In this document: positions 5,071-30,493 of the stretch, piece after piece
How positions within the stretch are numbered: the stretch's first letter is position 1
Layout: each line of letters begins with the position of its first letter
Source: a virus
Reading direction: 5' to 3' (one strand)
DNA: 36,794 nucleotides
Virus record (IMG/VR): IMGVR_UViG_3300009702_000009
Location: 1-36,794 of that record
Made by a program: the position numbers and the translations under genes
The notes under the pieces: model-generated
Database searches by the model: none
What the model was told of the DNA's origin: nothing
The model's input: only the letters and a program-made list of their open reading frames with translations

Positions 5071-5084
5071 TTTCACTACAAAAT

Positions 5085-5142
5085 AATACAAAGGTTTATA
5101 TATGTAAGTATTTACATTATATTTGGTGAAAGACCACGTATG
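5085..5142 (+). promoter_or_regulatory. Promoter/operator/leader cassette, copy 1
   Basis: aatacaaaggTTTATATAtgtaagtatttacattata..GGTGAaagaccacgtATG. TATA 5095-5102, palindrome ATGTAA-gtat-TTACAT 5102-5117, GGTGA 5125-5129, ATG 5140. Confidence 0.65.
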
Positions 5143-5283
5143 GAAGCAATAAGATATATCAACACATTAAATAAGAATAAAGAAGAGTTAGTTAAGGCTC
5201 ACAAAGCTAATCGAGTTAACATTAAAAAGCGATTAGAGGAGATTAAATATCATATAATTAATAATAAGAGGTTATTAGAATAA
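5140..5283 (+). CDS. Small protein, 47 aa
   Basis: Hand-translated MEAIRYINTLNKNKEELVKAHKANRVNIKKRLEEIKYHIINNKRLLE. Its stop overlaps the next ATG (TAATG). Confidence 0.45.
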   Translation: MEAIRYINTLNKNKEELVKAHKANRVNIKKRLEEIKYHIINNKRLLE

Positions 5284-7309: not shown

Positions 7310-7440
7310 AATGTGGTAAAGAGTTTGTTTTAAAGGAAGCTCATATAAGATATAGGATAGAGAATTATTGTGATATTTTTTGTCATGCACGTTATGAAGC
7401 TAAGATATATGCTAGAATGCGTAATGAGAAAAGTTTATAA
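7285..7440 (+). CDS. Zinc-finger ORF (CxxC...CxxxC, TRASH/FCS-like) lacking a canonical start
   Basis: The frame open from 7285 reads ..KCLECGKEFVLKEAHIRYRIENYCDIFCHARYEAKIYARMRNEKSL. It contains no ATG/GTG/TTG and is the -1 frame of 7124..7309. Confidence 0.35.
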   Translation: MRKIPKCLECGKEFVLKEAHIRYRIENYCDIFCHARYEAKIYARMRNEKSL

Positions 7441-7443
7441 ATA
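7434..7443 (+). promoter_or_regulatory. TATA-box-like 10-mer TTTATAAATA
   Basis: Exact 10-mer, 22 nt upstream of ATG 7466. Confidence 0.55.
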
Positions 7444-7465
7444 ATAAACATAAGAAAAAGTTATC

Positions 7466-7839: not shown

Positions 7840-7947
7840 GCTAAGGGATAATTCTTATCTATCATACGTGGCAGAATATCCTTAGCCAAATACTTTTTTA
7901 AAGGGGACTTTTCTTTAATCATATGTCCCCTTAATTAACTACTTTTT
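7840..7947 (+). ncRNA. Candidate small RNA, or a tandem terminator pair
   Basis: Hairpin gctaagggata/tatccttagc (7840-7886) followed by T6 (7894-7899). Hairpin aaggggac/gtcccctt (7901-7932) followed by T5 (7943-7947). No ORF. Confidence 0.3.
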
Positions 7948-7954
7948 AATAATA

Positions 7955-8007
7955 GAAACGTTTATATATGTAAGTATTTACATTATAATTGGTGAAAGCC
8001 ACGTATG
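7955..8007 (+). promoter_or_regulatory. Promoter/operator/leader cassette, copy 2
   Basis: TATA 7961-7968, palindrome 7968-7983, GGTGA 7991-7995, ATG 8005. Differs from copy 1 by a few bases and a 1-nt deletion. Confidence 0.65.
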
Positions 8008-8124
8008 GAACGAAAATATTTAGTAAAGATTAATAGAGTTATAGTATATCTAATATTAGTGCTGTATGTCTTGGACAAAGAAAATCTGCACACAATTATT
8101 TATGGAGATATACAAAATGAGTGA
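8005..8124 (+). CDS. Possible 39-aa hydrophobic peptide
   Basis: Starts at the cassette ATG: MERKYLVKINRVIVYLILVLYVLDKENLHTIIYGDIQNE. Overlaps the next ORF. Confidence 0.25.
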   Translation: MERKYLVKINRVIVYLILVLYVLDKENLHTIIYGDIQNE

Positions 8125-8737: not shown

Positions 8738-8864
8738 ATGTCTTATATGTGATTGGGAATTAAAGGAAGAGATTAATAGAGATTATGAATATCAAGAACT
8801 AAAAATGAGAATGTATGAACATGTAGATGAAAATGAGAATCATAGAGTTAAAAGAATTAAGTAA
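8715..8864 (+). CDS. Small CxxC protein, 49 aa
   Basis: Hand-translated MSKTIHFKCLICDWELKEEINRDYEYQELKMRMYEHVDENENHRVKRIK. Confidence 0.3.
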   Translation: MSKTIHFKCLICDWELKEEINRDYEYQELKMRMYEHVDENENHRVKRIK

Positions 8865-8866
8865 GA

Positions 8867-8876
8867 TTTATAAATA
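8867..8876 (+). promoter_or_regulatory. TATA-box-like 10-mer TTTATAAATA with no ORF downstream
   Basis: Exact 10-mer, 18 nt upstream of the outer stem of the 8895-9023 structure. Confidence 0.45.
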
Positions 8877-8894
8877 AACAAAATCCTAAATTAT

Positions 8895-9023: not shown

Positions 9024-9058
9024 TTTAAATTTGTCTTGGGGTAGCCCATTCCAAAACA

Positions 9059-9068
9059 TTTATAAATA
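9059..9068 (+). promoter_or_regulatory. TATA-box-like 10-mer TTTATAAATA
   Basis: Exact 10-mer, 19 nt upstream of ATG 9088. Confidence 0.6.
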
Positions 9069-9087
9069 ACAAATTCTAATAAAAGAT

Positions 9088-9372
9088 ATGACGTGGTTCA
9101 GAAAACTCACAAAAGTAGAAAAACGTAAACAAAGGGAAGACATTAAAGAACAACTATTAATATATGGAGTGCTTATAGTTATAATTTTAGTGGTGTTAGG
9201 TTTTTTTCAGTTTAGTTCACAAACTGTAGTGTCTAACGAAAATGAATCTTTTAATGATAGTTATATTAAAGAAGCATTAAATTATACTGAACCTTATCAA
9301 ACAGATATTCCTGATGATTTTGTAGTGCCTAACACAACAGAAATCATAAATACAACTAATATTTCTAATTAA
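9088..9372 (+). CDS. Membrane-anchored protein
   Basis: Basic N-terminus followed by LLIYGVLIVIILVVLGFFQF. Confidence 0.5.
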   Translation: MTWFRKLTKVEKRKQREDIKEQLLIYGVLIVIILVVLGFFQFSSQTVVSNENESFNDSYIKEALNYTEPYQTDIPDDFVVPNTTEIINTTNISN

Positions 9373-9634: not shown

Positions 9635-9784
9635 ATGGCAAAGTTTGTATATATAGGCAATAAGAGATACGCTTTTAAGAGAAAAGTGAATAATATAGAG
9701 AAAAAACAATTAGAAGAACACCCTCAAAAGACAAGTTTTTATTTTCAAAGAGCAGGAAGTAAATATAATTGGTATATGTTGTAA
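9635..9784 (+). CDS. Small basic protein, 49 aa
   Basis: Hand-translated MAKFVYIGNKRYAFKRKVNNIEKKQLEEHPQKTSFYFQRAGSKYNWYML. Confidence 0.35.
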   Translation: MAKFVYIGNKRYAFKRKVNNIEKKQLEEHPQKTSFYFQRAGSKYNWYML

Positions 9785-9793
9785 CTTTTAAGT

Positions 9794-9851
9794 AATACAA
9801 AGGTTTATATATGTAAGTATTTACATTATAATTGGTGAAAGACCACGTATG
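9794..9851 (+). promoter_or_regulatory. Promoter/operator/leader cassette, copy 3
   Basis: TATA 9804-9811, palindrome 9811-9826, GGTGA 9834-9838, conserved ..ccacgtATG ending at 9851. Confidence 0.65.
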
Positions 9852-9855
9852 AAAA

Positions 9856-11237: not shown

Positions 11238-11282
11238 GTGATTATAATCTTTAAGTATTATAACCGAACATTAACTGCACAA

Positions 11283-11873
11283 ATGGTAAAATATAAGGAT
11301 AAAAATAAATTAATACCCTCAAATAAGCTCTCAGAGTATGCTAAAATAAGAGATTATAGCCAGTTATATATGATTAATCCTAAAGGGGAAGTAATAAGCT
11401 TAAAATCGCTTAGAAAACTTAAACAGACAAAAAACCATTATGGATATTTAGTTGTTAATTTATCTAAAAAAGGAAAAGTAAAACAATTTAAAGTACATAG
11501 ATTGATAGCTGAAACATTTATTTCTAATCCTTTAAATAAAAGAACTATTAATCATATTAATGGTATTAAAACTGATAATAGATTAGAAAACTTAGAGTGG
11601 AGTACTTATTCAGAGAATTTAAAACATAAATTCAGGGTATTAGGGTATATTAATAATCGACCTAATAAAGATAAATTTGGTAAGTTACACCACAATAGTA
11701 AGAAAGTAAATCAGTATGATAAGAATATGAATTTAATTAAAACTTGGGGTAGTTTGATGGATATACAGAGAGAGTTAAAAATAAATAATAGTTCTATAAG
11801 CAATGTATGTTTATTGAAACCTAATTATAGAACTGCTGGTGGGTTTATATGGAGGTATATAAATGGGAAATAA
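11283..11873 (+). CDS. HNH homing endonuclease (NUMOD4/HNH_3-like with C-terminal DNA-binding repeat)
   Basis: HYGYLVVNLSKKGKVKQFKVHRLIAETF...INHINGIKTDNRLENLEWSTYSENLKH, plus C-terminal ..LIKTWGSLMDIQRELKINNSSISNV..GGFIWRY. ATG 11283 preferred over GTG 11238. Confidence 0.7.
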   Translation: MVKYKDKNKLIPSNKLSEYAKIRDYSQLYMINPKGEVISLKSLRKLKQTKNHYGYLVVNLSKKGKVKQFKVHRLIAETFISNPLNKRTINHINGIKTDNRLENLEWSTYSENLKHKFRVLGYINNRPNKDKFGKLHHNSKKVNQYDKNMNLIKTWGSLMDIQRELKINNSSISNVCLLKPNYRTAGGFIWRYINGK

Positions 11874-13632: not shown

Positions 13633-14055
13633 ATGAAGGTAGTTAAGACGGAGACTAAAGGAAAAAATTATATCATAACATTACATGTTGATGATAGGAA
13701 ATTGGACCCTATTAAAGGTATTGAACCTAGTGTGGAATTATTGAATAATTTCATATTTAATAGTAAGAAAGAAGCATTAGAGTTTTATAGTGCGATTATT
13801 GACCAGAATAATATGGCTATTGCTGATAATGAAACAAGATTGGCACAAATGCCTAGAGATTCATTAGAGAAAGTGAATGAATTTGCTGAAGCTATTAATA
13901 GACATAAAGCGTTAAGTAATAAGAAAGCTGATAAAATAAGTGACTTAATCAAAGCACATGACAATATGCGTTCATTTGAGAAAAATATAGTTGAGATAAC
14001 TAAAAAGAATAAAGAAGTTAGTGATATTATTAAAGCAATCAAAAAAAATAAATGA
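13633..14055 (+). CDS. Coiled-coil protein, possible small terminase subunit (position only)
   Basis: Stop overlaps the terminase ATG (ATGA). No diagnostic motif. Confidence 0.3.
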   Translation: MKVVKTETKGKNYIITLHVDDRKLDPIKGIEPSVELLNNFIFNSKKEALEFYSAIIDQNNMAIADNETRLAQMPRDSLEKVNEFAEAINRHKALSNKKADKISDLIKAHDNMRSFEKNIVEITKKNKEVSDIIKAIKKNK

Positions 14056-16541
14056 AATCAAAAATACCTATTGTGGATTTGAAAACTATAGCAATAGCAA
14101 TGAATAAATATAAAGATGAAGAAGAAAAATTCAAAGCCACATTAAGGTATTGGTTTTCATTTAAAGAGAATATTGCAACATTTAGTCAATTTTTATTTCC
14201 TGAGCATATTCAAGGAGAAGTACAAGATTTTCATAAAGAGTTTTATAAAACTTTCTTTAGAGCAGGTAATGATGCATTAGGAGCTCCAAGAGGACATGCA
14301 AAGCAGTTAGCTGACAGCACACCTATATTAACTCCAAAAGGGTGGACTACACATGGAGAGTTAAAAGTTGGTGATTATGTATATAGTCCAAGTGGTAAGG
14401 CTATCAAAGTTGTAGGTAAAAATAAAAAAACTAATTCTGATTTTGTTGTAACAACAAGAGATGGAGAACAAATAAGATGTCATGGTTATCACGAATGGAC
14501 AGTATTTGATAGAAATAAAAAGAAATTTGTAACTCTTGAAACTATTGATATGATTGATAAAGAATCTCAAAGAAGTAGATTCCAATTGCCTTTAAGAAAT
14601 CCTATTCAAGGAACTCATAAATCTTTAGATTTGGACCCTTATTTTTTAGGGATGTGGTTAGGGGATGGTTCTTCCACTAAACCTTGTATCACTCATTCAC
14701 CTTTAGATATGGATAGTGTTAATTCAATTCCTTATAATGTGTCTACAGTTTGTACTCATAATACTACAGGAGTATTAACGACTTATTTTTCAAATCAAAA
14801 TATTATTGAAACAATTCGTAAAATGGATTTATATAAAAATAAGCATATACCTAAAGAGTATTTAGAAAGTTCTTTAAATCAAAGATTGCAATTAATGGCA
14901 GGATTAATTGATTCAGATGGACATATTGATAAAAAAAGAGGGAGAATTAGGTTTGTTAATATTAATTATAATTTAATAAAAAATGTTGAAGAGTTAGCAT
15001 TATCATTAGGTTCACGACCATATATTACTCAACAAGACCCTAAATTAAATCCTTCTACAAAAGGTAAACAAATAGTTTATACTATAGCTTTTGACCCTAT
15101 TATTGATATTCCTACACGTTTAAAAAGGAAAAAGATTAGAAGATTTCCAAATAGACAAAGGTTAGGTATAACTTCAGTTGAGTATAAACCTAACGGGGAA
15201 AAAGGTAACTGTATTCAGGTTGATAGTGAAGATGGTCTATATTTGGCAGGAAGAAGACTAATACCTACACATAATAGTACAACAATAGGGATTATATTTA
15301 TATCATTTAATATTGTAAATAAGTTAGAGAGATATATTGTTTATATTTCACAGAATCATACTAAAACCGTTCAATTCATTGAACCATTAAGGTTTGAGTT
15401 CAAGAATAATAATCGGTTGAGGTGGTTATATGGTAATCTAGCTCCAACAGGTGCTAAAGATGATGATGGAAGAGATAGGGAAGATTGTGTTGATATTGAT
15501 GGAGTAAGGATTGAAGCTGTATCATTTGAGAAGAATCTTAGGGGTTTCAAGTTTGGGAATATGAGACCCACATTAATTGTTGGAGATGATATTGATTCTG
15601 ATGAAAGAGTAGTCAATCCAATATTAAGAGACAAAGATAGACATAAATTGTTTAGAGTAATTATACCTAGTTTAGATATTAATGGCAGAATAAAGATGGT
15701 AGGAACAATTATACATCATGATTGTTTACTAAATAATAGAATTAAAGCTTGGAACGGAAAAGTCTTTCGTGCTATTAATGATGGTATATCTTTATGGCCA
15801 GAAAGATTTACTCGAGAGAAATTATCTGAAATAAAGAAAGATATAGGTTCAGCAGCATTTGAATCAGAATATATGAATAACCCAATTGACAATTCTAGTG
15901 CACTAATTAAAAGAGAATGGGTTGAACAATGTTTAGAACCAGAGATAAGCGTAAGTGATTGTGATTTTGATGAAGTGTATTTAGGGGTGGATTTTGCATT
16001 TTCTGATAGAGTTTCAGCTGACCAGAGTGCATTTGGGGATATAGGTGTAAAGTATCATGATAATGGTCAAATAGATAAATTAATATTATTGAATGCAGAA
16101 TGGGCTAAAGGATTAAGTTTAAATCAACATTGGGAAAAGATTGAAAGAAAGTATTTAGCTAATAGGCATGACTTAGTTGTATTAGAAGAGAATAGTATTA
16201 AAGGTAGTGTAGAAGATATTAAACAACTCAATATTCCTTTTAAATTCTTTTGGATGGGTGCAAGAGACCCAAAGAATAATGAGAAATCTAGTTCATTTAC
16301 TAGTAAGACTATAGGCAAGATTAATGCGATTAATCGATTAGCTGTAAGTTTTGAATATAAGAGATGGTTAATCCCATATAAAACTCAAAGAGAACAAGAT
16401 ATAGCAAATAAATTAATAGCAGAACTAACTAGTTGGGGATTAGTTGATGGAAAATTAGAGGAGTTTGGAGTTCATCCTGATATGCCTGTTGCATTGATAA
16501 TGGTAAATGAAGCATTAAGAGGTAATACAGGAGTGGCTTAG
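14052..16541 (+). CDS. terL: Terminase large subunit precursor (505-aa extein plus 324-aa intein)
   Basis: Splicing would give the Walker A GAPRGHAK|STT. Walker B-like LIVGDDIDSDE. Nuclease-domain LGVDFAFSD. Confidence 0.85.
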   Translation: MKSKIPIVDLKTIAIAMNKYKDEEEKFKATLRYWFSFKENIATFSQFLFPEHIQGEVQDFHKEFYKTFFRAGNDALGAPRGHAKQLADSTPILTPKGWTTHGELKVGDYVYSPSGKAIKVVGKNKKTNSDFVVTTRDGEQIRCHGYHEWTVFDRNKKKFVTLETIDMIDKESQRSRFQLPLRNPIQGTHKSLDLDPYFLGMWLGDGSSTKPCITHSPLDMDSVNSIPYNVSTVCTHNTTGVLTTYFSNQNIIETIRKMDLYKNKHIPKEYLESSLNQRLQLMAGLIDSDGHIDKKRGRIRFVNINYNLIKNVEELALSLGSRPYITQQDPKLNPSTKGKQIVYTIAFDPIIDIPTRLKRKKIRRFPNRQRLGITSVEYKPNGEKGNCIQVDSEDGLYLAGRRLIPTHNSTTIGIIFISFNIVNKLERYIVYISQNHTKTVQFIEPLRFEFKNNNRLRWLYGNLAPTGAKDDDGRDREDCVDIDGVRIEAVSFEKNLRGFKFGNMRPTLIVGDDIDSDERVVNPILRDKDRHKLFRVIIPSLDINGRIKMVGTIIHHDCLLNNRIKAWNGKVFRAINDGISLWPERFTREKLSEIKKDIGSAAFESEYMNNPIDNSSALIKREWVEQCLEPEISVSDCDFDEVYLGVDFAFSDRVSADQSAFGDIGVKYHDNGQIDKLILLNAEWAKGLSLNQHWEKIERKYLANRHDLVVLEENSIKGSVEDIKQLNIPFKFFWMGARDPKNNEKSSSFTSKTIGKINAINRLAVSFEYKRWLIPYKTQREQDIANKLIAELTSWGLVDGKLEEFGVHPDMPVALIMVNEALRGNTGVA
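14304..15275 (+). mobile_element. Intein with LAGLIDADG homing endonuclease, class-3-like
   Basis: Block A QLADSTPILT. Block B ..HGYHEW (Trp codon 14496-14498). LAGLIDADG motifs LGMWLGDGSS and MAGLIDSDGHI. Block F GNCIQVD (Cys codon 15210-15212). Block G IPTHN|S (Thr codon 15267-15269, Asn 15273-15275). Confidence 0.8.
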
Positions 16542-16542
16542 A

Positions 16543-16821
16543 ATGGTAAAGAAGAAAGAAGAACCGACAAAGATTATATTACTTGAGAGTCATAAAATCT
16601 TTTTGAGTTTAAAGTTTTTATTACAAGAGAAAGAAGAATGTTTAACACCATATGGAAAAGGGTTGTTACAGGGATTACTTGACCCTGATTGTGAACATAA
16701 AATGGCTGTAGTGCCTAGAGTTGAACATGAAAGAATAGTTGATTCATTAAAAAAACCTATAAGAAAAAAGAGAGTTATTAAACCCAAGACGAAAAAAGCT
16801 TGGTGGCAACTTAAACACTAA
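16543..16821 (+). CDS. Hypothetical basic protein
   Basis: 92-aa ORF between terminase and portal. Confidence 0.45.
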   Translation: MVKKKEEPTKIILLESHKIFLSLKFLLQEKEECLTPYGKGLLQGLLDPDCEHKMAVVPRVEHERIVDSLKKPIRKKRVIKPKTKKAWWQLKH

Positions 16822-16823
16822 TA

Positions 16824-16833
16824 TTTATAAATA
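16824..16833 (+). promoter_or_regulatory. TATA-box-like 10-mer TTTATAAATA
   Basis: Exact 10-mer, 26 nt upstream of ATG 16860. Confidence 0.5.
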
Positions 16834-16859
16834 AGTAAATTGACAAATAACTATATTTA

Positions 16860-18797
16860 ATGAAGATGGGTAATTATGAGATTGTTTATGAACCAGAATA
16901 CAAAGCCGAGAATATTAACAAACAAGTTGAAGATAATGTTGCTGAACATCAAGAGTCAATGAGTAATAGTCCTCAATATAAGGTTATTATCCCTCAATAT
17001 ATGTATAAACCTGCATGGGGATTCCCTAGATATCAACCTTTAGGATTATTAAGACAATTAGGAAAAAACGTATATGCGTCAAGCATTTTCAAAACAATTA
17101 AAGATGTTATTATTGATACACCTAGAAAAGTTGTTGCTAAAGAAGGTATTGATGTTGATGAAGAACTTCAAAAGAAAATAGATGAATATCAGTTGTTTTT
17201 TGAAAGACCTAATCCTGAAGAAACATTTAGTTCATTTATTAGAAAAGTATTAGATGATATATTCAAATATGATTCAGGAGTAATTAATAAAGTATTTAAC
17301 CTTGCAGGGGAATTGATACAACTTAGAGCAGCACCAGGTGATACATTCAAAAAGAATCCAAACAAACGTGGATATTTGGATGAAAGAGATGATATAATTT
17401 TAGATAAAACACCTAGTAACGCATTAATTGAAGCGAATAAGAATCCAAGGAATATGGAAAATGGGTTTGCTAATACGGCAGCATTTCAATTTTATACAAA
17501 TTTTATTGATAAAGCTGCATATTTTCAGTTTGTTAATAGTGTAGCATCACAAATACCTATTCCTTATGGAAAAAGAGAATTATGTTGGCTTACAAGTAAC
17601 CCTTCAACAGATAATGTTTATACTAATGGTGCTCCATTAGAAGATGCAATAGATTTAATTCTTAGTTTAATTTATGGTTTAAAATTCAATTTAGATTTCT
17701 ATATGAATGGAAATACTCCTGAAGGGATTGTTAATGCTGTTGGTGCAACAAAGAAAGATTTAGCAAAGATTAAGGACCAATTAAATTTAAGTATTAACAC
17801 TCCAAGAGACCAATTTGGATTAAAGAGACGTATAGGATATAGAATGCCTATTGTTAATATGGATAATTTAGATTTTGTTAAATTGAATATGACAAGTAAA
17901 GAGATGGAAATACTTGAACAGCAGAAATGGTTTACTAAGATTCTTTGGATGAGATTTGGAGTTAATGCTGATGAAATGGGTTTTACCGAAAATAGTAATA
18001 GGGCAACATCAGGGCAACAAACTAAGAACAGTATAAGAAAAAGTATTAAACCTATTTATGTTATGATAGAAGAATGTTTCACATATGATATTTTATCTGA
18101 ATTTGAAGATGGAGATAAATTAAGGTTTGAATTTGATTTTTATGACCCTATAGACCAAAAAGAGATTAGGGATTTACAACAACAAGAGATATCTATGGGT
18201 ATTAATAGTGCTCGAAATATTATGAATGAAGAAGGAATTAATGCTGATGAGATAGAGAGTCAGAATCAAGATGCACAAGAGTTTGATTTCAATTTAAATA
18301 ATCCTGATGTACCTGAAGAGAATAATCCTTTTCCTAATGAGATGGATAAAGCAGATAAAAAAGAGAAAGAGAAACCTGAGACTAAATCCTTTACTACAAC
18401 AACAGGAGGTACAGGAACAACAGATAATGTAATGAACCCAATATATACTGATAGAAAAACAATTATTAAAAAGAATGGGAAATGGGTAGAAGATAAAGAG
18501 ACACGTCATGAAACTAAAGCAGAGGACACACCTGATGTTCCATTGGAAACCCCCTTAGAAAAAGTTATGGGAATGTTTATTAAAAAGATTGATGCCAAGA
18601 ATAAAGAGATTATAGAGGATTCAGAAGATTATGAAAATGAAATAGATGATGTGGAATTAAAACACAAATATATTAAACGAACAGGTAACATGGGGAATTA
18701 TAAATATTTTTATAGAGACAATAAGACGGGTAAAATCTTTCAAGGGTCTGCACCTAAAAAAGAAAGATATATGAAGAAATGGACGAATATGAATTAG
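16860..18797 (+). CDS. Portal protein with a long C-terminal extension
   Basis: 645 aa, immediately after the terminase region. Assigned by size and position. The C-terminal about 170 aa are acidic or low-complexity and carry the capsid-like segment. Confidence 0.65.
   Translation: MKMGNYEIVYEPEYKAENINKQVEDNVAEHQESMSNSPQYKVIIPQYMYKPAWGFPRYQPLGLLRQLGKNVYASSIFKTIKDVIIDTPRKVVAKEGIDVDEELQKKIDEYQLFFERPNPEETFSSFIRKVLDDIFKYDSGVINKVFNLAGELIQLRAAPGDTFKKNPNKRGYLDERDDIILDKTPSNALIEANKNPRNMENGFANTAAFQFYTNFIDKAAYFQFVNSVASQIPIPYGKRELCWLTSNPSTDNVYTNGAPLEDAIDLILSLIYGLKFNLDFYMNGNTPEGIVNAVGATKKDLAKIKDQLNLSINTPRDQFGLKRRIGYRMPIVNMDNLDFVKLNMTSKEMEILEQQKWFTKILWMRFGVNADEMGFTENSNRATSGQQTKNSIRKSIKPIYVMIEECFTYDILSEFEDGDKLRFEFDFYDPIDQKEIRDLQQQEISMGINSARNIMNEEGINADEIESQNQDAQEFDFNLNNPDVPEENNPFPNEMDKADKKEKEKPETKSFTTTTGGTGTTDNVMNPIYTDRKTIIKKNGKWVEDKETRHETKAEDTPDVPLETPLEKVMGMFIKKIDAKNKEIIEDSEDYENEIDDVELKHKYIKRTGNMGNYKYFYRDNKTGKIFQGSAPKKERYMKKWTNMN
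18378..18439 (+). repeat. 62-nt repeat, copy in the portal gene
   Basis: 60/62 identical to 28624-28685. Encodes ETKSFTTTTGGTGTTDNVMNP. Confidence 0.9.
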
Positions 18798-19812: not shown

Positions 19813-20325
19813 ATGGTAGAAACATTAACAAAAGAATATTTGAGTAAATTATATTACAAACAAAACAAAAGTTATAGAGATTTAGCTAAAATTACAGGTT
19901 TAAGTACTACAACAATTAGGAAGCGTTTTAAAGATTGGGGATTCAAATCTAGAAGTTTAAAAGAATCTTGTAAATTAAGATGTGAATTAAAACCTCAAAC
20001 TAATCCTGGAAGAAAAAATATGCCTAAAAATCCTAATTATGGAAAAGCTAATCATGCTTATAAAAAAGGGTATTGGATTAATGTTCACGGATACAAGAAG
20101 ATTTCAGTTGATGGAGAGGAAAGAATAGAACATAGATATATTTGGGAGCAGTTTCATCAAAAACCTATTCCTCCTAGACATCAAATACATCATATTAATG
20201 GGGATAAGTTAGATAATAGAATAGAGAATTTACAATGCATGACTAATTCGGAGCATCAAAAGTTACATAATCAACCAAGAGAAGAAACGACTGGAAGATT
20301 TATAAATAAGGAAGATGAGGAATAA
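19813..20325 (+). CDS. HNH endonuclease with N-terminal HTH
   Basis: SYRDLAKITGLSTTTIRKRF (HTH) and HQIHHINGDKLDNRIENLQCMTNSEHQKLH (HNH). Confidence 0.7.
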   Translation: MVETLTKEYLSKLYYKQNKSYRDLAKITGLSTTTIRKRFKDWGFKSRSLKESCKLRCELKPQTNPGRKNMPKNPNYGKANHAYKKGYWINVHGYKKISVDGEERIEHRYIWEQFHQKPIPPRHQIHHINGDKLDNRIENLQCMTNSEHQKLHNQPREETTGRFINKEDEE

Positions 20326-20327
20326 AT

Positions 20328-20720
20328 ATGTTATTCAGATTGAAGAAAGATAATATTATTTTAGATAAACCTTTTGGATGGAATATTGAGGGCAAAATAG
20401 TTAAGTTTAATATAAAGTGTAAGAACATTCCAAAAAGTGTTAAAATAACAATCTTAACAGCCGAGAATGAGGTATTATTCAATGAAACAATTGTTAAAAC
20501 TAATACAAACATATATCCTATCAATATAATTAAGAATGAGGGTGTTGTTGAGGCAGGGGAAGAATTTTTAATAGATGAAGAACTTCATAGAGATTATTAT
20601 TATGTATTTGGACTTGTAGGTGTTAATATTAAAGGATTACAAGAAGGAGAACGAATAGATAATATAAGTATATTCTATGAATCTGAACAAGGAGCTAAAT
20701 CTACACCAGGTTTCACATAA
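20328..20720 (+). CDS. Hypothetical protein
   Basis: 130-aa ORF. Confidence 0.45.
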   Translation: MLFRLKKDNIILDKPFGWNIEGKIVKFNIKCKNIPKSVKITILTAENEVLFNETIVKTNTNIYPINIIKNEGVVEAGEEFLIDEELHRDYYYVFGLVGVNIKGLQEGERIDNISIFYESEQGAKSTPGFT

Positions 20721-20722
20721 TA

Positions 20723-20732
20723 TTTATAAATA
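20723..20732 (+). promoter_or_regulatory. TATA-box-like 10-mer TTTATAAATA
   Basis: Exact 10-mer, 19 nt upstream of ATG 20752. Confidence 0.6.
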
Positions 20733-20751
20733 ACAAACATAAAAAAAAGTT

Positions 20752-21051
20752 ATGGTTCAATTAATTGGAACACTATCAGCACCTGGAACTATTGTGGTTC
20801 CTAAAGTACAACGTTATGAACATCATAAAATATATCTTAAAGTATCTAATTATACAACAACAATTACTGTTGTTGTTGAAGATGTAAGTTTAGGAGAAGC
20901 ATATCCTGTGGATTTACATTCTTCAGGAACATATACTATAACTGCAAATGGGACTTATGCCTATCAATATGAGAACGCTAGATGTGATGATTTAAGAATT
21001 AATTTATCAGGTGGTTCTGCGACTGTCGAGGTCTTTTATAATGGTTGGTGA
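20752..21051 (+). CDS. Small beta-rich protein
   Basis: 99-aa ORF. Confidence 0.45.
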   Translation: MVQLIGTLSAPGTIVVPKVQRYEHHKIYLKVSNYTTTITVVVEDVSLGEAYPVDLHSSGTYTITANGTYAYQYENARCDDLRINLSGGSATVEVFYNGW

Positions 21052-21352: not shown

Positions 21353-24300
21353 ATGACTAATCACACAATAAGCTCTAATACTGATATAAATACTTTCAAT
21401 AACACTGTTACATGGGTTAATGGAGATACAATAACTATCAATACTGATATTACATTTACTATTGATGAACCAAATATCAGTAGTAGAATAAATAAATATC
21501 TTTATACGCACACAGTAAGTGGGATATTACTTCTTGATGGAACAAGTATAAGAGAAATGGATTATGATGGAGGGACTCTTTCTGCAGTTCCAACATTAGG
21601 GGATACTATAACAGGAGGGACTAGCGGTGCAACAGGGACTGTTGTTTTTTTAAATTCTACAGCTTCAACTGTTTCAGGAAATATGCTTATTAAAGGAATT
21701 TCAGGTCAATTTGAAGATAATGAGACTTTAACATTTACAACTCCAACAGGTTCTGCATTAGCTAATGGTAATGGGGTTTCTGGAACTGTTACAACAGCTG
21801 ATGCTACAGGAACAACATTAACAGATAGTACTGCAACATTTATTACACGTGGAGTGAAAGAAGGAGAGTACATTTTAAATACTACAGATGGAAGTATAGG
21901 AAAAATAACTAATGTTGATAGTGAAACTCAATTAACTTGTGAAGTATTAACAGGTGGAACAGGTAATGATTTTGGTTTATCTGATGCTTATAAAATAAGT
22001 GCCGATAGGAGAGGTTGGATTCAATATGCATCTAAAGATGACACTTCAGGAAATACTATTGTTGGAGTAGGAACTCTTAAAGTCACAGGGGAATGGTATT
22101 CATTAGGAAGAAGTACAGGATTAGCATCACAAACATTTACACATTATACTTCTGATTATGTACCTTTTGTAGAAATAGAAACAAGTGCAGGAAGTGGTGT
22201 TTATGAAGTTTGGTTAAATGCTTCTCGTTCAGGATTAACAACAGTTGGAATTGGGGATACAGGAAGGTTTTTTGTTTCTATTACAGGGAGTTCAACTCTT
22301 ACTTTTGGAGATGGTGTAAATGGTGAAATTCCTCCCACTAATGCAAATGTAAGAGTACCAAATGTTCACTGGAGTCAAGCAGATACAACTTCTTGGCCAG
22401 CAATAAAAATGCATGCAACATATTATTATCGTGTTTCTGTAGCTATTCAAAATTTAGATTTGGATACATTTAGTGGAGGTAGTTTGTATATGAATACTCA
22501 AACATCTACTGCAGTATCTCAAAAACTTTATAATTGTAAAATTTTTAACTCTGGATTTTCTCAAAGAGTTCTGATAAATGACCCAATACAAAGTACAAAT
22601 ATAGATGGGTGTTATGTTGGTAGTCCTGACCCTGCTGCTACAAATAATAATATATCATCAGTTTTTGGTGGATTTAGTAGAGGTACAATGACTTCAATAA
22701 ACAAATTTTATTCTTCAGGATATTATTCATCTGCACAAGTGCCTATTTCTAATTGTAATAACGCAACATTAACAAATATTAAATTTTTTAAACAAACTAG
22801 AGGAGGTACTGGTTATTATGGATTTGTATTTTCTAGTAATAGAAATACCAAAATAATAGGATTAACGTTAGTGGGAGCATTAGTAAGTTTAACAAGTTGT
22901 CCTGGTTGTTCATTTGAGAATATAAAATTCTCATGTGAGCCTACTGGGATAAAGAAAACTTCATCTGGTGCGTATGGAATACTGTTTGATGGAGGTAGTT
23001 TTGAGAATTTCATATTGAAAGGGTATGAATATACAAACCCTGGTGCTCCATCTTATCTTGGAGATATTAATATTTCATCAGGTTTTGGAACTGGATTAGT
23101 TATAAGAGATATTGGTTCTTATTCAACACCGATAGATTTAGATACTCATGCTCCGTTTATTGTAAGATTATCAGGAAATTTTCAGGACCCTCTTGTTGCA
23201 AGAGTATATGTTAAAAATAATAGAGTTACTTCTCCTTATGTACCAATTGCTTTTTACACTTATGGTGCTGCTAGGAGTCCTCAAACATATAATTGTGCAA
23301 CTTATCATGATACTTTAGCAAATGTAGGATTTCAACGTGTATATTCAAAAACTACACCAAGAGGAATAAGAACAAACTTTTTGAATTATGGCGCAGGAAA
23401 TTATGATTTAGACAATTATAGTTTACCTGATGATACCATATTTTATGATGGTTTTAAATCAGATACAACAGGTGTGGTGTCTTTTACTCAAGGTTCTGTA
23501 TTAGAACTTACAGCATATAAAACTTTTACAGGGAGTGTAATTTTTACAGGGGGCAGTTCTGGAGACCAGTTTAGTTCATCAGGAGCAACAATAACATGGG
23601 AATGTCCTAGTATAGTATATGGTCATACGGGATTAACAGGTTATACTGTTGGTGGTTCTATAAATTCATATTCAACGAAGGATTATCAAATAGACACAGG
23701 TTCAGGATGGAGTAGTTGGAAAACATTAAATACAACTAATCTTACTTCTGAGACTATTTCGTCTTCTACAGGATTTAAATTGAAAGTCAGATTGACTTCA
23801 ACTACTTCAAGTACAAAATCATTAAATTATGTAGAGATTCAAACTACAACTACTTTAGCTGACCAAAGGGATAATACTGTTGATATTGATACTTTTGATT
23901 TAACATTAACAGGGGTTTTAAGTGGTTCTAATTATAGAATTGAAAAAAATATTGATGGAACACTTTTAGCATCAGGAACTGCAACAGCAGACCAAGTAGT
24001 TAAAGTTAATACTACAACTGGAGCAGTAATGGATATTCTTATTGGTAAAGACCAATATAAAAGATTTGTTACAAGTGCTATAGCTGCTTCACTAGGTGTT
24101 GAATCATTTATATCTCAAATTTCTGATACTTTTAGAACTGTGAGTGATATTGTAGCAAATGCTTATACAGGAATAGCAATAAATGGTACAGCTAAGACTG
24201 TGACTATAACAACAGCTCATACTCATCAAGAATTATATGATTATTGTAAGGCCTGGGCTATTCAGACAAATAATTTACAATATGATGTTCCTCTTACAAC

Positions 24301-27244
24301 TGTTGATGGAGTAACTTTTAATCAAACTTCAGGGTGGAGTATCATTATTAGTGGTAGTGGAAAATTAACTAGTATTACTACTGATGTTGATGGGACAATA
24401 ACTGTTAGTAGTGGTGGATTTTATGAAGGTGTGTCAGGTGTTAAATGGGAGAATACAGGAAGTGTTTATTATGCATCTCATTTTTGGACTAATATTAAAG
24501 ATAATTCTTCCAATCTTGATTTACAAAATTGTATTATTGCTTATGTTGAAACAGATACTGATAGTGACCAAACTTATAACACCTCATTAGTTAAAGGAGG
24601 ATTATTAAGTGATGTTAATGGAAATGTTGAAGGGTATGTTGTTTATAAAGTAGATACTACCACTTATTCAGGGCATAAAGAAATAGTTGGAGAATACAAT
24701 TATGTATGGAGTAGTATTCCTAAAAGTTTTAATGGAGGACAAGTAGGAACACCTTCATCTTATAATGGTGTAAGGCTAAATGTTGATTCTCATATTTCTA
24801 AAACTAAAGCTAACGCATTATTAGTTTCAGGAATTACAACCAATCATACAACATCAACTTTAGATGCTTCAAGTAATGTGTATCAAGACGTTTATGATAA
24901 CCTTAAAGCTAGACAAACACGAGTAGCAGATATAGAAACTGGAAAAGCAGGATATATGAGTTTTTATAGTGTTGGTTTGATTTTATCGTATGATGGAACT
25001 TTTTATTCTCTTATTGATACTTGGATTATTCAGAATATTGGAGGCACAGGAACATTAAAGAATGGAACGGCAGAATTAGGAACGGCAGGAACCATAAGTT
25101 TTGATTTTCAAGATGTTGATTTAGATTATACTGTTATAGGCACTTTTGACCATAGAGGGAGAGTTATGGGTGGAACTATAACTTTCGATAACACTAGTGG
25201 AGGGAATGTTACTGCTCAAATTGATGCAGGAGTTGTTTACGTTAATAATGGCCCTAACATTACTGTTGAACAAGGAACTATAAGCACAGGAATTAATTTC
25301 ACTGGATTAATTAGTGGGAGTCAAGTTTATGTTTTTGCTACAGGGACTCAAACTGTTAAAACTTTTATTGAGAGTAGTGGAACTTCTTATTTATGGAGTG
25401 AAACATGGGTATCTGACCAAACTGTAGATTATACTATTATCAATGAAGGATATTTACCTGTAAGAGTTACTGGAGTAGTTGCTAGTACATCTATTCAAAC
25501 AATACCAATAAATCAAATTGTTGATAGGGCTTATCAGAGTAGTTCAGGTCTTACATTTGGAACAACTGCAACAGTAAATACTACTACTAAAATATTTGGA
25601 TTAACTGTGACTTCAACAGTTCAAAATTGGTATAGTTTCATGATGGAAAGTTGGAGAAGTGAAAGTACACTTAAGAATGTTCAATTCCCTCTTAGTGCTA
25701 ATGGCCCAAATAGTTTCACATTAAAAGAATATGAATGGGATGCTACTAGTAGTATTAATAATCTTACAAGTGATGGAATGAGATATACTGATGCTAGTGA
25801 TGTATTAACTGCGAGTTGGTGTGGAATTTTATCTATTGGAGATGTTACAGGATTACAAATTAAATATCAACAACAAGATGGACTTAATACTACTAATGCT
25901 CTAACAACAGGACCAATAAACCAATTAATACAGATTTATGGAGATGCTACTCACGGTAATTTTGATTATACAGGGCATATGGTATTAAAGATTCAAGAGG
26001 ATGGTTATGACCAAGCTGATAGTGATTTAGTTAATATTTTTGGAACTTTAGAAGACCAATTTTATGTTACAGGTTTATTACCTTTAAGCAATGGATTGAC
26101 AACAGGAGACCCTAGTGTTACAGGAGTTACAATAACTGACCACGGTGCATCTCCTGTAACCTGGAATGGAAAATCTTTTTCAATAACTATAACTGATAGT
26201 GCAACAGCTCACACAGGTACTGAGATTATGCGTTGGATAAGATATAATCTTAGTTTAGGAGGAACATTTCAGGGTAAAGATGCGTTTAATTGGCATGATT
26301 TAGTGCAAATAGATGGTTCAAAATTCAAAACAGTTAGAGGCGAGATTTATGGGGACATAGGAGCAACAATAAAAGGAGTTAGAGTTGTACAAAATGATGG
26401 AACAACAGCACATCTTGATTTTAGTAAATTTGAAGCAGATGATGGAACATTTTATGTGCCTCCTGTAATTTTACCTGCTACAATTTCTAGTTTAGTTGCA
26501 GGAAGTAGGGTTCAAGTATATAATGTTACAACTTCTACTGAGGTATTCAATGATATAGTTGCAGGAACAACTTATTCTGTTAATTATACAGAAGGAGTAG
26601 ATTATACTGCAGGAGATACTGTAAGGATAAGAGTTGCTTATGTAAGTGGAACAACTGCAAAAGAAGGATGGAATACTAATGTGATTGCAACTTCAAGTGG
26701 TTGGAGTACAGTTGCTGCACAAGTAGATGATGATGTATATAATACTAATGCTGTTGATGGTTCATTAATTACAAAATTTACAGCAGATTATATTAGTGAT
26801 GAAATAGATTTATCTGCTGATTCTAATTTCACATCACAAGAGGCTTATGCATTTTATATGTATAGTGTATTTACTGCACCAGGTATAGAACAATTTTATG
26901 GCGGTGTAGAGGCAATTGATACAGGTAACTATAAAATTCTTACATCAGTATTGAATTTATATTTTGATAATACTACAACTGCATCCCATAGACAAACAGA
27001 TTCTGCAAGAATATTTAGAGATGATGGAACATATCCTGTTAAAGACCCTACAACAAGTGCATTTGGAATTGATGTGAATTGGATGACACCTGTAAATGTT
27101 GTTGAAGTTAATACAGGTTCAGCAGTTAATAAGACAACAGTTAAAGATGCATTAACTGAACAAGGATATACAACAACAAGAGCACCTAAGATAGATGATA
27201 TTGATAAAGCATTAACAACAAGCAAATTTATAGCACTAAAATAA
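21353..27244 (+). CDS. Giant (1963 aa) virion-associated beta-helix / adhesin-like protein
   Basis: AGGTGA upstream of the ATG. T/S/G/N-rich. The segment about 22745-23040 (NCNNATLTNIKFF...NTKIIGLTLVG...CSFENIKFS...GILFDGGSFENFILKG) looks like parallel beta-helix repeats. Confidence 0.6.
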   Translation: MTNHTISSNTDINTFNNTVTWVNGDTITINTDITFTIDEPNISSRINKYLYTHTVSGILLLDGTSIREMDYDGGTLSAVPTLGDTITGGTSGATGTVVFLNSTASTVSGNMLIKGISGQFEDNETLTFTTPTGSALANGNGVSGTVTTADATGTTLTDSTATFITRGVKEGEYILNTTDGSIGKITNVDSETQLTCEVLTGGTGNDFGLSDAYKISADRRGWIQYASKDDTSGNTIVGVGTLKVTGEWYSLGRSTGLASQTFTHYTSDYVPFVEIETSAGSGVYEVWLNASRSGLTTVGIGDTGRFFVSITGSSTLTFGDGVNGEIPPTNANVRVPNVHWSQADTTSWPAIKMHATYYYRVSVAIQNLDLDTFSGGSLYMNTQTSTAVSQKLYNCKIFNSGFSQRVLINDPIQSTNIDGCYVGSPDPAATNNNISSVFGGFSRGTMTSINKFYSSGYYSSAQVPISNCNNATLTNIKFFKQTRGGTGYYGFVFSSNRNTKIIGLTLVGALVSLTSCPGCSFENIKFSCEPTGIKKTSSGAYGILFDGGSFENFILKGYEYTNPGAPSYLGDINISSGFGTGLVIRDIGSYSTPIDLDTHAPFIVRLSGNFQDPLVARVYVKNNRVTSPYVPIAFYTYGAARSPQTYNCATYHDTLANVGFQRVYSKTTPRGIRTNFLNYGAGNYDLDNYSLPDDTIFYDGFKSDTTGVVSFTQGSVLELTAYKTFTGSVIFTGGSSGDQFSSSGATITWECPSIVYGHTGLTGYTVGGSINSYSTKDYQIDTGSGWSSWKTLNTTNLTSETISSSTGFKLKVRLTSTTSSTKSLNYVEIQTTTTLADQRDNTVDIDTFDLTLTGVLSGSNYRIEKNIDGTLLASGTATADQVVKVNTTTGAVMDILIGKDQYKRFVTSAIAASLGVESFISQISDTFRTVSDIVANAYTGIAINGTAKTVTITTAHTHQELYDYCKAWAIQTNNLQYDVPLTTVDGVTFNQTSGWSIIISGSGKLTSITTDVDGTITVSSGGFYEGVSGVKWENTGSVYYASHFWTNIKDNSSNLDLQNCIIAYVETDTDSDQTYNTSLVKGGLLSDVNGNVEGYVVYKVDTTTYSGHKEIVGEYNYVWSSIPKSFNGGQVGTPSSYNGVRLNVDSHISKTKANALLVSGITTNHTTSTLDASSNVYQDVYDNLKARQTRVADIETGKAGYMSFYSVGLILSYDGTFYSLIDTWIIQNIGGTGTLKNGTAELGTAGTISFDFQDVDLDYTVIGTFDHRGRVMGGTITFDNTSGGNVTAQIDAGVVYVNNGPNITVEQGTISTGINFTGLISGSQVYVFATGTQTVKTFIESSGTSYLWSETWVSDQTVDYTIINEGYLPVRVTGVVASTSIQTIPINQIVDRAYQSSSGLTFGTTATVNTTTKIFGLTVTSTVQNWYSFMMESWRSESTLKNVQFPLSANGPNSFTLKEYEWDATSSINNLTSDGMRYTDASDVLTASWCGILSIGDVTGLQIKYQQQDGLNTTNALTTGPINQLIQIYGDATHGNFDYTGHMVLKIQEDGYDQADSDLVNIFGTLEDQFYVTGLLPLSNGLTTGDPSVTGVTITDHGASPVTWNGKSFSITITDSATAHTGTEIMRWIRYNLSLGGTFQGKDAFNWHDLVQIDGSKFKTVRGEIYGDIGATIKGVRVVQNDGTTAHLDFSKFEADDGTFYVPPVILPATISSLVAGSRVQVYNVTTSTEVFNDIVAGTTYSVNYTEGVDYTAGDTVRIRVAYVSGTTAKEGWNTNVIATSSGWSTVAAQVDDDVYNTNAVDGSLITKFTADYISDEIDLSADSNFTSQEAYAFYMYSVFTAPGIEQFYGGVEAIDTGNYKILTSVLNLYFDNTTTASHRQTDSARIFRDDGTYPVKDPTTSAFGIDVNWMTPVNVVEVNTGSAVNKTTVKDALTEQGYTTTRAPKIDDIDKALTTSKFIALK

Positions 27245-27472: not shown

Positions 27473-28399
27473 ATGGGTCCGACAGATACTAAATTTCATT
27501 TGATAGAAGTCAAATCTGAATCAGGTAGAAATTATTTTATTGAAGGATTTGTTTCAACGACTGACCCAGATTTGTATAATGATATTGTTACAGAAGAAGC
27601 ACAAAAATCTATATTACATCAATTATTAAATCGTAATATTACTATGGATGAAGACCATGATGTTTGGAGAGATTCAAATACAGGGGAATCATTTGATAGG
27701 CCTCAAAACAAAATACCTGCTGCTAAAGTCGAAAAGGCAGAACTACGTGATGTAGGAGACGGAAGTACAGGAACTTTTGTTAGAGTTAAACTAAATAAGA
27801 ATTATCCTAGATTTAAAGCCTTATTAGGTTCAATTAAAGAAGGATTTGTTCACAGTTTTTCAATTGCATATAATGTATTGAAAGATTCTCCAAAACGAAT
27901 TGGAGAAGAAACTTTTAGAGTAATTGATGATTTAAATATATTCAATGTAGGAATCACAGGTGTCCCAGTAAACAATAATGCAAAATTTCAATTGGCTTTA
28001 AAGTCATTAAATATAAAAATGTCAGAAGAAAATAACATTGAAGAAATGCAAACTAAAATAGATTCTCTTGAAAAAGAGAATACTGAGTTTAAATCTCTAA
28101 TTGATGCAAAAGATGCAGAACTTAAATCTCTTAATGAGAAAGTGGAAGCATCTGAAACATCAGTTAAAGAAAAGAACGCAGAATTTAAATCTGTTAGTGA
28201 AGCAAAAGAAAAAGAATTAACTGAGCTTAAATCTAAGTTTGATAAAGTGGAAGCTTTAGAAAAACAAGTTGCTGAGTTAAAGAGCTTTCAAGAGAAAGTA
28301 GAGAAAACTCCTATTAATGGAGCAGAACTTAAATCTCAGGTTCCTTCACAAATCGTAGCAAGTGAAGTAAATTTCAAATCGCTACTACCCACTAATTAA
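27473..28399 (+). CDS. Prohead protease (HK97/S78-like) fused to a coiled-coil scaffold-like domain
   Basis: N-terminal YFIEGFVSTTDPDLYNDIV...MDEDHD...HSFSIAY resembles caudoviral prohead proteases. The C-terminal about 130 aa are E/K-rich with eight [LF]KS repeats. Confidence 0.6.
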   Translation: MGPTDTKFHLIEVKSESGRNYFIEGFVSTTDPDLYNDIVTEEAQKSILHQLLNRNITMDEDHDVWRDSNTGESFDRPQNKIPAAKVEKAELRDVGDGSTGTFVRVKLNKNYPRFKALLGSIKEGFVHSFSIAYNVLKDSPKRIGEETFRVIDDLNIFNVGITGVPVNNNAKFQLALKSLNIKMSEENNIEEMQTKIDSLEKENTEFKSLIDAKDAELKSLNEKVEASETSVKEKNAEFKSVSEAKEKELTELKSKFDKVEALEKQVAELKSFQEKVEKTPINGAELKSQVPSQIVASEVNFKSLLPTN

Positions 28400-28401
28400 A
28401 A

Positions 28402-29580
28402 ATGGAAGATGTAAATTTCGGAAGAGGAGCACCAAACGCATCAGTATATACTAAATCCTTTGGAAACATGAAAGATGGAAGTATTTATTATGACCCTATG
28501 AATACACAGTTTGGACAAGTAGAATCAAGCCCTGAACTTAAATCTAAGTTTGAGGATATCAGAAAAGGTATGGCAAATCATTTAATTGATGTAGTTCCAG
28601 AACTTAAATCAAGATATAATGTAGAGACTAAATCCTTTACTGCAACAACAGGAGGTACAGGAACAACAGATAATGTAATGAATCCTATTTTCTTAGATAG
28701 AGACATTGTTGATACATCAAGAAAACAAACTCCTATGAGAAGTATTCTTCGTAGAGTATCCAATCAAGGAATTAAAGCAGTTTATAATGTAATTACAGGA
28801 AAACAAACTGCATCATTTCAAGGTGAATTAGAGCCACAAGTAGTTAGTGACTTTACACCTGAGAGAAGTTCAAAAGATGTTAAAATCATTAGAGTAGCAG
28901 GATACACATCAGGATTAGCTCAAGCTAGTGTACCTTCCTTTAATCTACAAGATATTCAAGGAACAAATTCAGAATTTGGACAATTCTCAGGAAGTGTTGG
29001 AAGTACTGCTATGGACCAAAACGTTTTAACAGCTACTAGAGCAATACAAGAGTTTGAAGAGAATAAAATCTTTAATGGAAACTCAGGAACAGATTCTAAA
29101 GAATTTGATGGTATTGTAGCTTTACAAGGTTCAACTAATTGTACTGCATTAGGTGGAACAGCAATTACTCTAGATAACTTAGATGATGCATATTTTGATG
29201 CATATCAAGCAGGAGGTCAACCTAATATCGCAGTATGTGATGTTGTAACTTACAAAAAAGTTAAACAACTATTACAAAATAAAGGTGGATTCTTAGAATA
29301 CAAAGATTTAGGAGTATATGGATTTAAAGCTCTTATGATTAAGACAGGAGATACAGATATCCCTTTAATTCCGAGTAGATTCTTATCCACAACAGCAGCA
29401 GCACAATCTCTTTACATGTTAGATTTATCTGTATGGGAAATGAGAGTGTTGTTAGATTTAACTTTCGAGACACTTGCAAAAGTTGATGATGGAAATAAGT
29501 TCATGCTTAAAATGTATGAAGTGCTTGTAGATAAATCTAATGCAGCCTTCAATGCATGTATTACAGGAGGAACAAACTAA
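28402..29580 (+). CDS. Major capsid protein (HK97-fold, by position and size)
   Basis: 392 aa, directly after the protease-scaffold gene. N-terminal about 77 aa carry the repeated ELKS/ETKS motifs. Confidence 0.65.
   Translation: MEDVNFGRGAPNASVYTKSFGNMKDGSIYYDPMNTQFGQVESSPELKSKFEDIRKGMANHLIDVVPELKSRYNVETKSFTATTGGTGTTDNVMNPIFLDRDIVDTSRKQTPMRSILRRVSNQGIKAVYNVITGKQTASFQGELEPQVVSDFTPERSSKDVKIIRVAGYTSGLAQASVPSFNLQDIQGTNSEFGQFSGSVGSTAMDQNVLTATRAIQEFEENKIFNGNSGTDSKEFDGIVALQGSTNCTALGGTAITLDNLDDAYFDAYQAGGQPNIAVCDVVTYKKVKQLLQNKGGFLEYKDLGVYGFKALMIKTGDTDIPLIPSRFLSTTAAAQSLYMLDLSVWEMRVLLDLTFETLAKVDDGNKFMLKMYEVLVDKSNAAFNACITGGTN
28624..28685 (+). repeat. 62-nt repeat, copy in the capsid gene
   Basis: 60/62 identical to 18378-18439. 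Encodes ETKSFTATTGGTGTTDNVMNP. Confidence 0.9.
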
Positions 29581-30436: not shown

Positions 30437-30463
30437 TTTTATTACTATTATTTTTTAGTAATA

Positions 30464-30473
30464 TTTATAAATA
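30464..30473 (+). promoter_or_regulatory. TATA-box-like 10-mer TTTATAAATA
   Basis: Exact 10-mer, 20 nt upstream of ATG 30494. Confidence 0.6.
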
Positions 30474-30493
30474 AGTAATATCATAATTTTAGT

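Follow-up and report, generated by a model that had tools for sequence, protein, structure and literature searches.

Within the viral genome sequence IMGVR_UViG_3300009702_000009 (IMG/VR), analysed here over its whole length of 36,794 nucleotides (the window), the gene encoding the portal protein carries a near-identical copy of the segment with which, very probably, the mature major capsid protein begins. The portal gene (16860..18797, 645 amino acids), the prohead protease gene (27473..28399) and the capsid gene (28402..29580) lie on the + strand, as do all the features within them described below. The interpretation that we favour, and to which we give roughly even chances, is that an old capsid-to-portal copy has been retained by selection, has been refreshed by gene conversion, and would form part of a protease-cut portal tail bearing a docking motif.

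Nucleotides 18378-18439 of the portal gene, encoding E507-P527, and nucleotides 28624-28685 of the capsid gene, encoding E75-P95, are identical at 60 of 62 positions and in frame in both genes, so that direct comparison confirmed the identity reported in the initial annotation of this DNA. A search allowing up to three mismatches recovered exactly these two sites in the window and none in 100 dinucleotide-preserving shuffles. Weaker similarity runs on to 18455 and 28701, giving 69/78 identical positions over the full repeat; the sequences flanking the two copies upstream are unrelated to each other. Translation yields ETKSFTTTTGGTGTTDNVMNPIYTDR for the portal segment and ETKSFTATTGGTGTTDNVMNPIFLDR for the capsid segment. 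On the basis of the repeat search and of nucleotide and codon comparisons, we take the full portal copy (18378..18455) as a gene-conversion tract, and the capsid copy (28624..28701), which comprises E75-T-K-S78 and the first residues of the predicted mature N-arm and resembles other capsid copies (73-82% nucleotide identity), as its donor. The motif itself occupies 18387..18440 of the portal gene (S510-P527, SFTTTTGGTGTTDNVMNP). Two further statements of the annotation were borne out, as the portal copy starts 139 residues from the C-terminus (about 140 had been estimated), and the paralogue pair 838/1250, cited as strongly diverged, shares just 36% protein identity.

The duplication is not an assembly chimera, since one of two independent assemblies carries both copies, each with its own unique flanks, and the other carries the portal copy. 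These assemblies, Logan SRR6056608 (L042, both copies) and ENA ERZ27249683 (L043, covering the portal copy only), represent the same virus and are collinear with the window and 99.98% identical to it, with four differences over 19,960 bases in L042 and four over 12,489 bases in L043. Three of the four are adjacent (18410..18412) and fall inside the portal copy, where the window reads TAC, as in the capsid gene, and both other assemblies read the portal-type AGA. The window thus has GGA GGT ACA GGA (G-G-T-G), exactly as in its own capsid gene, and L042 and L043 have GGA GGA GAA GGA (G-G-E-G); with the latter reading the identity between portal and capsid segments is 57/62. The sole difference outside the portal copy is a single A/C substitution at position 12465, at which the window departs from both other assemblies.

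The relationships among the copies point to gene conversion, as far as they can be followed in the close clade with seven portal copies, some twelve capsid copies and three firm motif-carrying portal/capsid pairs. Over 78 nucleotides, the portal copy of the window shares 88% of positions with the capsid gene of its own genome, compared with 68-76% for other capsid copies and 59-64% for other portal copies, and it carries the capsid-type residues G-G-T-G, D-N-V and I-Y-T-D-R. Because the window capsid copy resembles other capsid copies, the transfer ran from capsid to portal. The proportion of synonymous differences (pS) within own pairs is 0.14 in the window, 0.66 in L001 and 0.24 in L020. The TAC/AGA cluster reproduces the capsid donor exactly and bears the signature of a very short conversion patch. 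Combining unrelated flanks, an in-genome paralogue closer than the orthologues and a recipient polymorphism that matches the donor, the high-identity tract qualifies as a product of gene conversion. Recent gene conversion and selection on the sequence had been proposed as alternatives; both apply, and in relatives the motif stands out as a conserved island under purifying selection. In L042 and L043 the portal-type E codon has been retained although the tract around it is capsid-like, a hint that the portal copy has an optimum of its own. As a separate observation, the genome contains two HNH_3 homing-endonuclease genes (11238-11873 and 19813-20325), and the portal copy lies 1.4 kb upstream of the second. 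Breaks that such enzymes make in both DNA strands could promote conversion between the portal and capsid genes.

The same duplication was sought in relatives and is present there. Six portals that are 52-71% identical (P0002/L001, P0003, P0004, P0007/L020, P0008 and P0009) carry the motif directly after E-x-K-S, in the form S-[FM]-[TG]-x-x-[IT]-G-G-[EV]-G-T-x-D-[SKH]-V-M-N-P, and both copies occur in L001 and L020. In each genome examined the capsid protein and the portal are the only carriers. A second copy of the capsid protein's own N-arm was detected in 3 of 25 capsid-gene loci (the window, L001 and L020), no independent acquisition in other clades was seen among these 25 loci, and more distant portals never showed the motif, either in an alignment of 44 portals or in the loci examined. 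In a neighbour-joining tree the motif appears in two subclades with motif-less portals interspersed, for which the simplest history would be one gain and at least three losses. Among the six portals other than that of the window, mean pairwise identity reaches 75% in the site plus motif, compared with 20% and 13% in the 30-residue flanks and 65% in the portal core. Five portal copies gave a pS of 0.61 and a proportion of non-synonymous differences (pN) of 0.22, and the capsid copies 0.47 and 0.20, respectively. Since synonymous sites approach saturation while the peptide is kept and its flanks have diverged, the motif is a selected short linear element, under purifying selection, within a disordered tail. 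On the capsid side, G84, G85, G87 and P95 are invariant or nearly so among 72 homologues.

The window proteome (about 9,500 residues) contains 12 E-x-K-S tetrapeptides, seven of them in the protease-scaffold protein, three in capsid residues 1-78, one in the portal (507-510) and one elsewhere, against an expectation of about 0.3 or fewer per protein; L001, L020 and L023 display a similar concentration, with a few sites in other proteins. The protease gene encodes an S78 prohead protease whose C-terminal part, a fused scaffold-like coiled coil, holds the seven sites (Pfam Peptidase_S78, 30.8 bits, cut-off 21; PHROG head maturation protease), and its stop codon lies two nucleotides ahead of the capsid start. 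The capsid protein matches Pfam SU10_MCP (56 bits, cut-off 24.1, residues 88-375), and Foldseek aligned it to the capsid chains of SPO1, SU10 and HK97 with E-values from 4e-15 to 2.5e-12, which identifies it as an HK97-fold protein. Its first 77 residues (28402..28632) form a predicted delta, or scaffolding, domain, as judged by motif counts, AlphaFold2 and homologues, with E-x-K-S at 45, 67 and 75, and the predicted mature protein would extend from S78 to N392 (28633..29580). The third capsid site closes the domain at K77, a lysine that hardly varies among the 72 homologues, and the Pfam capsid model begins ten residues later. In the AlphaFold2 model a helix of scaffold-like type spans 44-71, and confidence is low over residues 72-95. 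In HK97 the K103/S104 cleavage site likewise lies in an unstructured region beside the flexible N-arm (PMC10275583). From this parallel, together with the position and near-invariance of K77 and the disordered stretch, the mature capsid protein very probably starts at S78, and hence the suggestion that the duplicated segment is the mature N-terminus holds as very probable. In a comparison with the solved SU10 capsid protein the C-terminal part alone aligned and the SU10 N-terminus lacked the motif, so this structure says nothing about the role of the N-arm. As a side observation, L020 encodes downstream of its capsid gene (17111-17428) a 105-residue acidic protein with four E-x-K-S sites, which may be an extra scaffold-like or internal protein.

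The portal copy occupies an equivalent context. The 645-residue protein was assigned by Pfam Phage_portal PF04860 (82.9 bits, cut-off 39.1, residues 100-449), by PHROG portal families (1.5e-36) and by AlphaFold2, according to which the last crown helix spans 462-479 and the fold ends at about 479, leaving residues 482-645 as a C-terminal extension. Residues 482-532, that is, the linker, E-T-K-S and the copied motif, have a predicted local distance difference test (pLDDT) score below 50. The K/E/D-rich disordered linker (residues 482-506, 18303..18377), whose equivalent stretch is 20% identical among relatives, precedes E507-T-K-S510 (18378..18389), the sole E-x-K-S of the portal and a predicted prohead-protease site that is conserved in homologues. 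Across the 44 aligned portals (27-71% identity), K509 hardly varies and E-x-K-[SAG] keeps its place within a common plan of core, K/E/D-rich linker, E-x-K-[SAG], optional inserted modules and a conserved amphipathic C-terminal helix. A cut between K509 and S510 seems fairly likely on these grounds. The proposal that the portal may be processed by the same protease as the capsid protein is accordingly well supported by inference, the sole E-x-K-S falling in a predicted disordered linker with a nearly invariant lysine, and the tail looks like a place where modules are added and later released. The remaining tail (18441..18794), delimited with AlphaFold2 and the tail alignment, comprises a small hairpin (IIKKNGKW), the amphipathic helix 565-599, conserved family-wide, and KHKYIKRTG..Y.YFY.

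Two observations on the tail stand apart from the copied motif. The stretch between E-x-K-[SA] and the C-terminal helix is a family-wide insertion hot spot (P0006, P0008, P0010, P0014, P0020, P0042 and other homologues), holding MuF, zeta-toxin/AAA, SH3-like, His-rich HxH, PFGGYSNFxDCV and other modules; this variety suggests that portal-fused cargo proteins are delivered and then released by the protease. Moreover, portal residues 596-631 (18645-18752) contain a motif, ELKHKYIKRTGNMGNYKYFY, almost identical to one in the portal tails of distant relatives (L007, L008, L009 and L016), and this module, which is preceded by E-[LIM]-K-H, also occurs inside the protease open reading frames (ORFs) of L007-L009. 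As KHKYIKRTG..Y.YFY is thereby a second short motif common to portal tails and protease genes, the exchange of short peptide modules among head-assembly proteins would seem to be a habit of these viruses. We also considered whether the minimal portal tail E-x-K-[SA]-x-x-N-P-L-x-E-I-x-x-Y-I-D could itself be an old N-arm mimic, a candidate that was rejected after hhalign against the capsid N-arm profile returned a probability of 0.9% and an E-value of 0.059.

Taken together, these data can be accommodated in the following scheme. A stretch of some 60-80 nucleotides that begins at the predicted maturation site E-T-K|S of the capsid gene, and specifies residues 1-18 of the mature capsid protein, would have entered the portal gene by copying. 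The point of insertion would be the E-x-K-[SA] site that portals themselves conserve, within the disordered region following the portal fold. Similarity begins and ends at residues that belong to ancestral portal tails, E-x-K-[SA] and N-P-L, which could have provided the microhomology for this first copy. The copy is old, occurring in relatives whose portals are as little as 52% identical; purifying selection maintains it, and it bears a portal-type signature (G-G-E-G, D-[SKH]-V). Now and then short-tract gene conversion from the capsid gene overwrites it, and the window carries the most recent of these events, which accounts for the 60/62 identity extending to synonymous sites. The S78 protease would then cut the tail between K509 and S510, and the motif would equip the portal tail with the short docking element found next to the cut in the capsid subunit, the protease-scaffold fusion protein being the likely partner. 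In this way the procapsid might take up and process the portal as it does a capsid subunit, and the same new N-terminus would arise. On the reading that we prefer, which is less certain than the cleavage, the motif probably serves to dock a partner that binds the beginning of the capsid N-arm too.

Several points weigh against this scheme. Four related portals (P0005, P0006, P0010 and that of L028) keep the site without the motif, which must therefore be dispensable or compensated there. Cleavage as such does not need the motif, given that other E-x-K-S sites in the scaffold and the delta domain lack it. Six portal/capsid pairs, three located on one contig and three inferred from shared samples, are more alike within than across genomes, and 5/720 permutations reached the observed value (5/120 without the window); as support for conversion this co-variation is weak and confounded by relatedness. 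Finally, the window allele at 18410-18412 was found in the Joint Genome Institute (JGI) assembly alone and could be an assembly quirk. It is probably real, because the discriminating sites of the portal-capsid-portal mosaic lie 14 and 24 nucleotides apart, and with k>25 a de Bruijn assembler would not produce such a pattern.

The initial annotation had also raised the idea that the portal displays an N-arm mimic that plugs into the capsid lattice, which is compatible with processing of the portal rather than exclusive of it. In its broader form, in which a genuine N-arm mimic, either the portal tail or the 136-residue fragment released from it, nucleates assembly on the portal or fills the N-arm sites that the missing pentamer leaves empty, we find the idea possible, if rather doubtful. 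If true, it would represent a sequence-encoded answer to the mismatch between the 12-fold portal and the 5-fold vertex, one that repeated conversion would keep in step with the capsid gene. The stricter version, which we regard as unlikely, holds that the portal-borne peptide or the fragment takes the N-arm sites of the five hexamers that surround the portal vertex, sites normally filled from the missing pentamer, thereby anchoring the portal or sealing the vertex. It draws on the correspondence of the motif to the N-arm start, one of the most conserved parts of the capsid family, on its purifying selection, on a long disordered linker that could span the symmetry mismatch, and on a K|S cleavage that would yield an authentic capsid-like free N-terminus. 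The same cleavage, however, is predicted between the portal core and the mimic and would leave no covalent tether. Furthermore, the first 18 residues alone were copied, leaving out I-[FY]-L-D-R-D-I-V-D-T-S-R-K of the N-arm, and several losses of the motif have occurred, in four relatives; these facts, along with the severing cut, weaken the plug. Portal copies also favour E where capsid copies have T, S or A.

That the motif has no function at all, being a neutral by-product of ectopic recombination through E-x-K-S...N-P microhomology whose conserved look arises from re-copying, seems to us quite unlikely. Conversion is demonstrably active, the similarity is bounded precisely by the ancestral residues E-x-K-[SA] and N-P-L, the motif is confined to one subclade and has been lost several times, and the nearby homing endonuclease genes could provoke repair. 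Constant re-copying would nevertheless not be expected to leave portals with a signature of their own (G-G-E-G, D-[SKH]-V and no [FY]-L-D-R) and near-saturated synonymous divergence over retained amino acids, a combination that argues for vertical descent under purifying selection. The contrast between the 75% identity of the motif and the 13-20% of its flanks, and the persistence of the E codon within the otherwise converted tract of L042 and L043, speak against neutrality as well.

Improbable, in our judgement, is a third possibility, namely that the portal tail serves as a timing device only, a kinetic twin of the final capsid cleavage released in step with maturation and devoid of any docking role. 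It shares the E-x-K-S evidence with the docking interpretation, and the motif does follow the last, maturation-defining capsid site and the single portal site, not the many scaffold sites; yet an 18-residue prime-side determinant is long for such a protease, as it would be for herpesvirus assemblin-like enzymes. An assembly artefact, to which the restriction of the window allele to the JGI assembly might lend some colour, or selection on the DNA or RNA itself, for instance as a regulatory or recombination site, is very improbable, since L042 and L043 reproduce the copies with their flanks as described, relatives L001 and L020 hold both, nucleotides have diverged in relatives while the peptide was kept, and no sigma-70-type promoter or terminator signal above background was detected around the portal copy.

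Much of what the docking interpretation invokes has precedents, since portal trimming by prohead proteases and cleavage motifs common to several substrates are known already, and the arrangement is not a new kind of system. The portals of lambda (gpB), P2 (gpQ) and Mu (gpH) are trimmed by the prohead protease; a literature search on portal processing in T5 or Mu returned nothing usable. The portals of SPN3US (gp81) and of phiKZ-like phages are cut by the prohead protease (PMC10052503). As in these protease-trimmed portals, the window portal shares its predicted cleavage motif with the further head substrates of the protease encoded in the genome, and it would lose a terminal extension as the head matures, the cut being predicted here on the C-terminal side of the portal fold. 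The difference resides in the 18 residues after the cut, which are homologous to those after the capsid maturation cut. For none of these systems did we find an account in which the prime side of a portal cut consists of a conserved and converted copy of the mature capsid N-terminus.

The capsid protein itself resembles HK97 gp5 (PMC10275583) in its predicted N-terminal helical scaffolding domain, in the protease gene directly upstream, in a K|S cut within an unstructured stretch, predicted in the present case, in a mature protein that would begin with an N-arm, and in its fold. It differs in belonging to the SU10_MCP Pfam family and in having a protease fused to a long, many-site coiled-coil scaffold; moreover, no copy of the N-arm is known from the portal of HK97. 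In P22, a scaffold hook binds the acidic coat N-arm and also the portal (PMC12005531). A single assembly factor that contacts both capsid N-arm and portal to build the portal vertex is the very logic proposed here, although the P22 portal surface and coat N-arm are unrelated in sequence and no protease is involved, whereas the window portal contains a literal copy of the N-arm start. The capsid and scaffold proteins of staphylococcal phage 80alpha have an N-terminal Prp cleavage motif in common with ribosomal protein L27, so that, as proposed here, different substrates of one protease have a conserved sequence around the cut. That shared motif lies on the removed side and is read by a host protease, while the one described here would be retained, on the prime side, and handled by a viral enzyme. 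Likewise, encapsulin cargo-loading peptides and the C-terminal tail of the HK97 protease are short motifs on disordered tails that target the shell interior. The portal motif is also a short linear element on a disordered tail, and KHKYIKRTG..Y.YFY, moving between portal tails and protease genes, provides a second one; unlike those targeting peptides, the portal motif derives from the shell protein itself, and its binding is putative.

Research on model phages has yet to explain fully how the portal comes to sit at one vertex only and how portal and shell maturation are coupled. In the present case the sequence of the genome indicates a link between portal and capsid, through a selected 18-residue peptide lying beside a predicted protease site and matched by gene conversion, in viruses whose relatives are mostly binned with uncultivated DPANN archaea, a lineage without known assembly biology. 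The portal copy is, besides, a clean case from nature of short-tract gene conversion in a virus, involving two genes that are not paralogues.

Regarding the genome as a whole, positions 1-123 and 36672-36794 of the window are identical over 123 bp, so the genome is complete, circular or terminally redundant, and about 36.67 kb long, with a G+C content of 30%; L043 comes from a 36,813-bp contig that starts elsewhere in the genome. Searches of cultured-phage databases revealed no close relative, with distant portal matches only (about 22% identity) and none for the capsid protein. A metagenome scan with the capsid profile retrieved a duplicate of L001 and one short contig and nothing more, a genome scan with the single capsid protein gave no match, and PDB sequence searches with capsid profiles yielded no significant match. 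Woesearchaeota or Nanoarchaeota (Candidatus) metagenome-assembled genomes hold 7 of the 12 portal relatives found in genome bins. In addition, an element resembling the archaeal TATA box, (A/T)TTTATAAATAA, precedes many genes about 25-30 nucleotides upstream of their start codons (1217-1252, 7430-7465, 8857-8892, 9055-9090, 16820-16855, 20295-20330, 20719-20754 and 30454-30489). From both facts, the host is probably a DPANN archaeon and the virus an archaeal tailed virus.

Other features of the head module and its surroundings deserve mention. The large terminase gene (14052-16541) is split by a LAGLIDADG/Hom_end intein-like insert, and relatives have the same form of 823-829 residues. A MuF-like gene comes next after the portal gene. 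Between the portal/MuF module and the protease lies a 1,963-residue ORF without a Pfam match (21353-27244); it is absent from the relative L001, where just 2.2 kb separate the portal and capsid genes. A 78-nucleotide intergenic repeat with the palindromic core TATATATGTAAGTATTTACATTATA occurs in three copies (5068-5145, 7934-8011 and 9777-9854) that are 69-88% identical.

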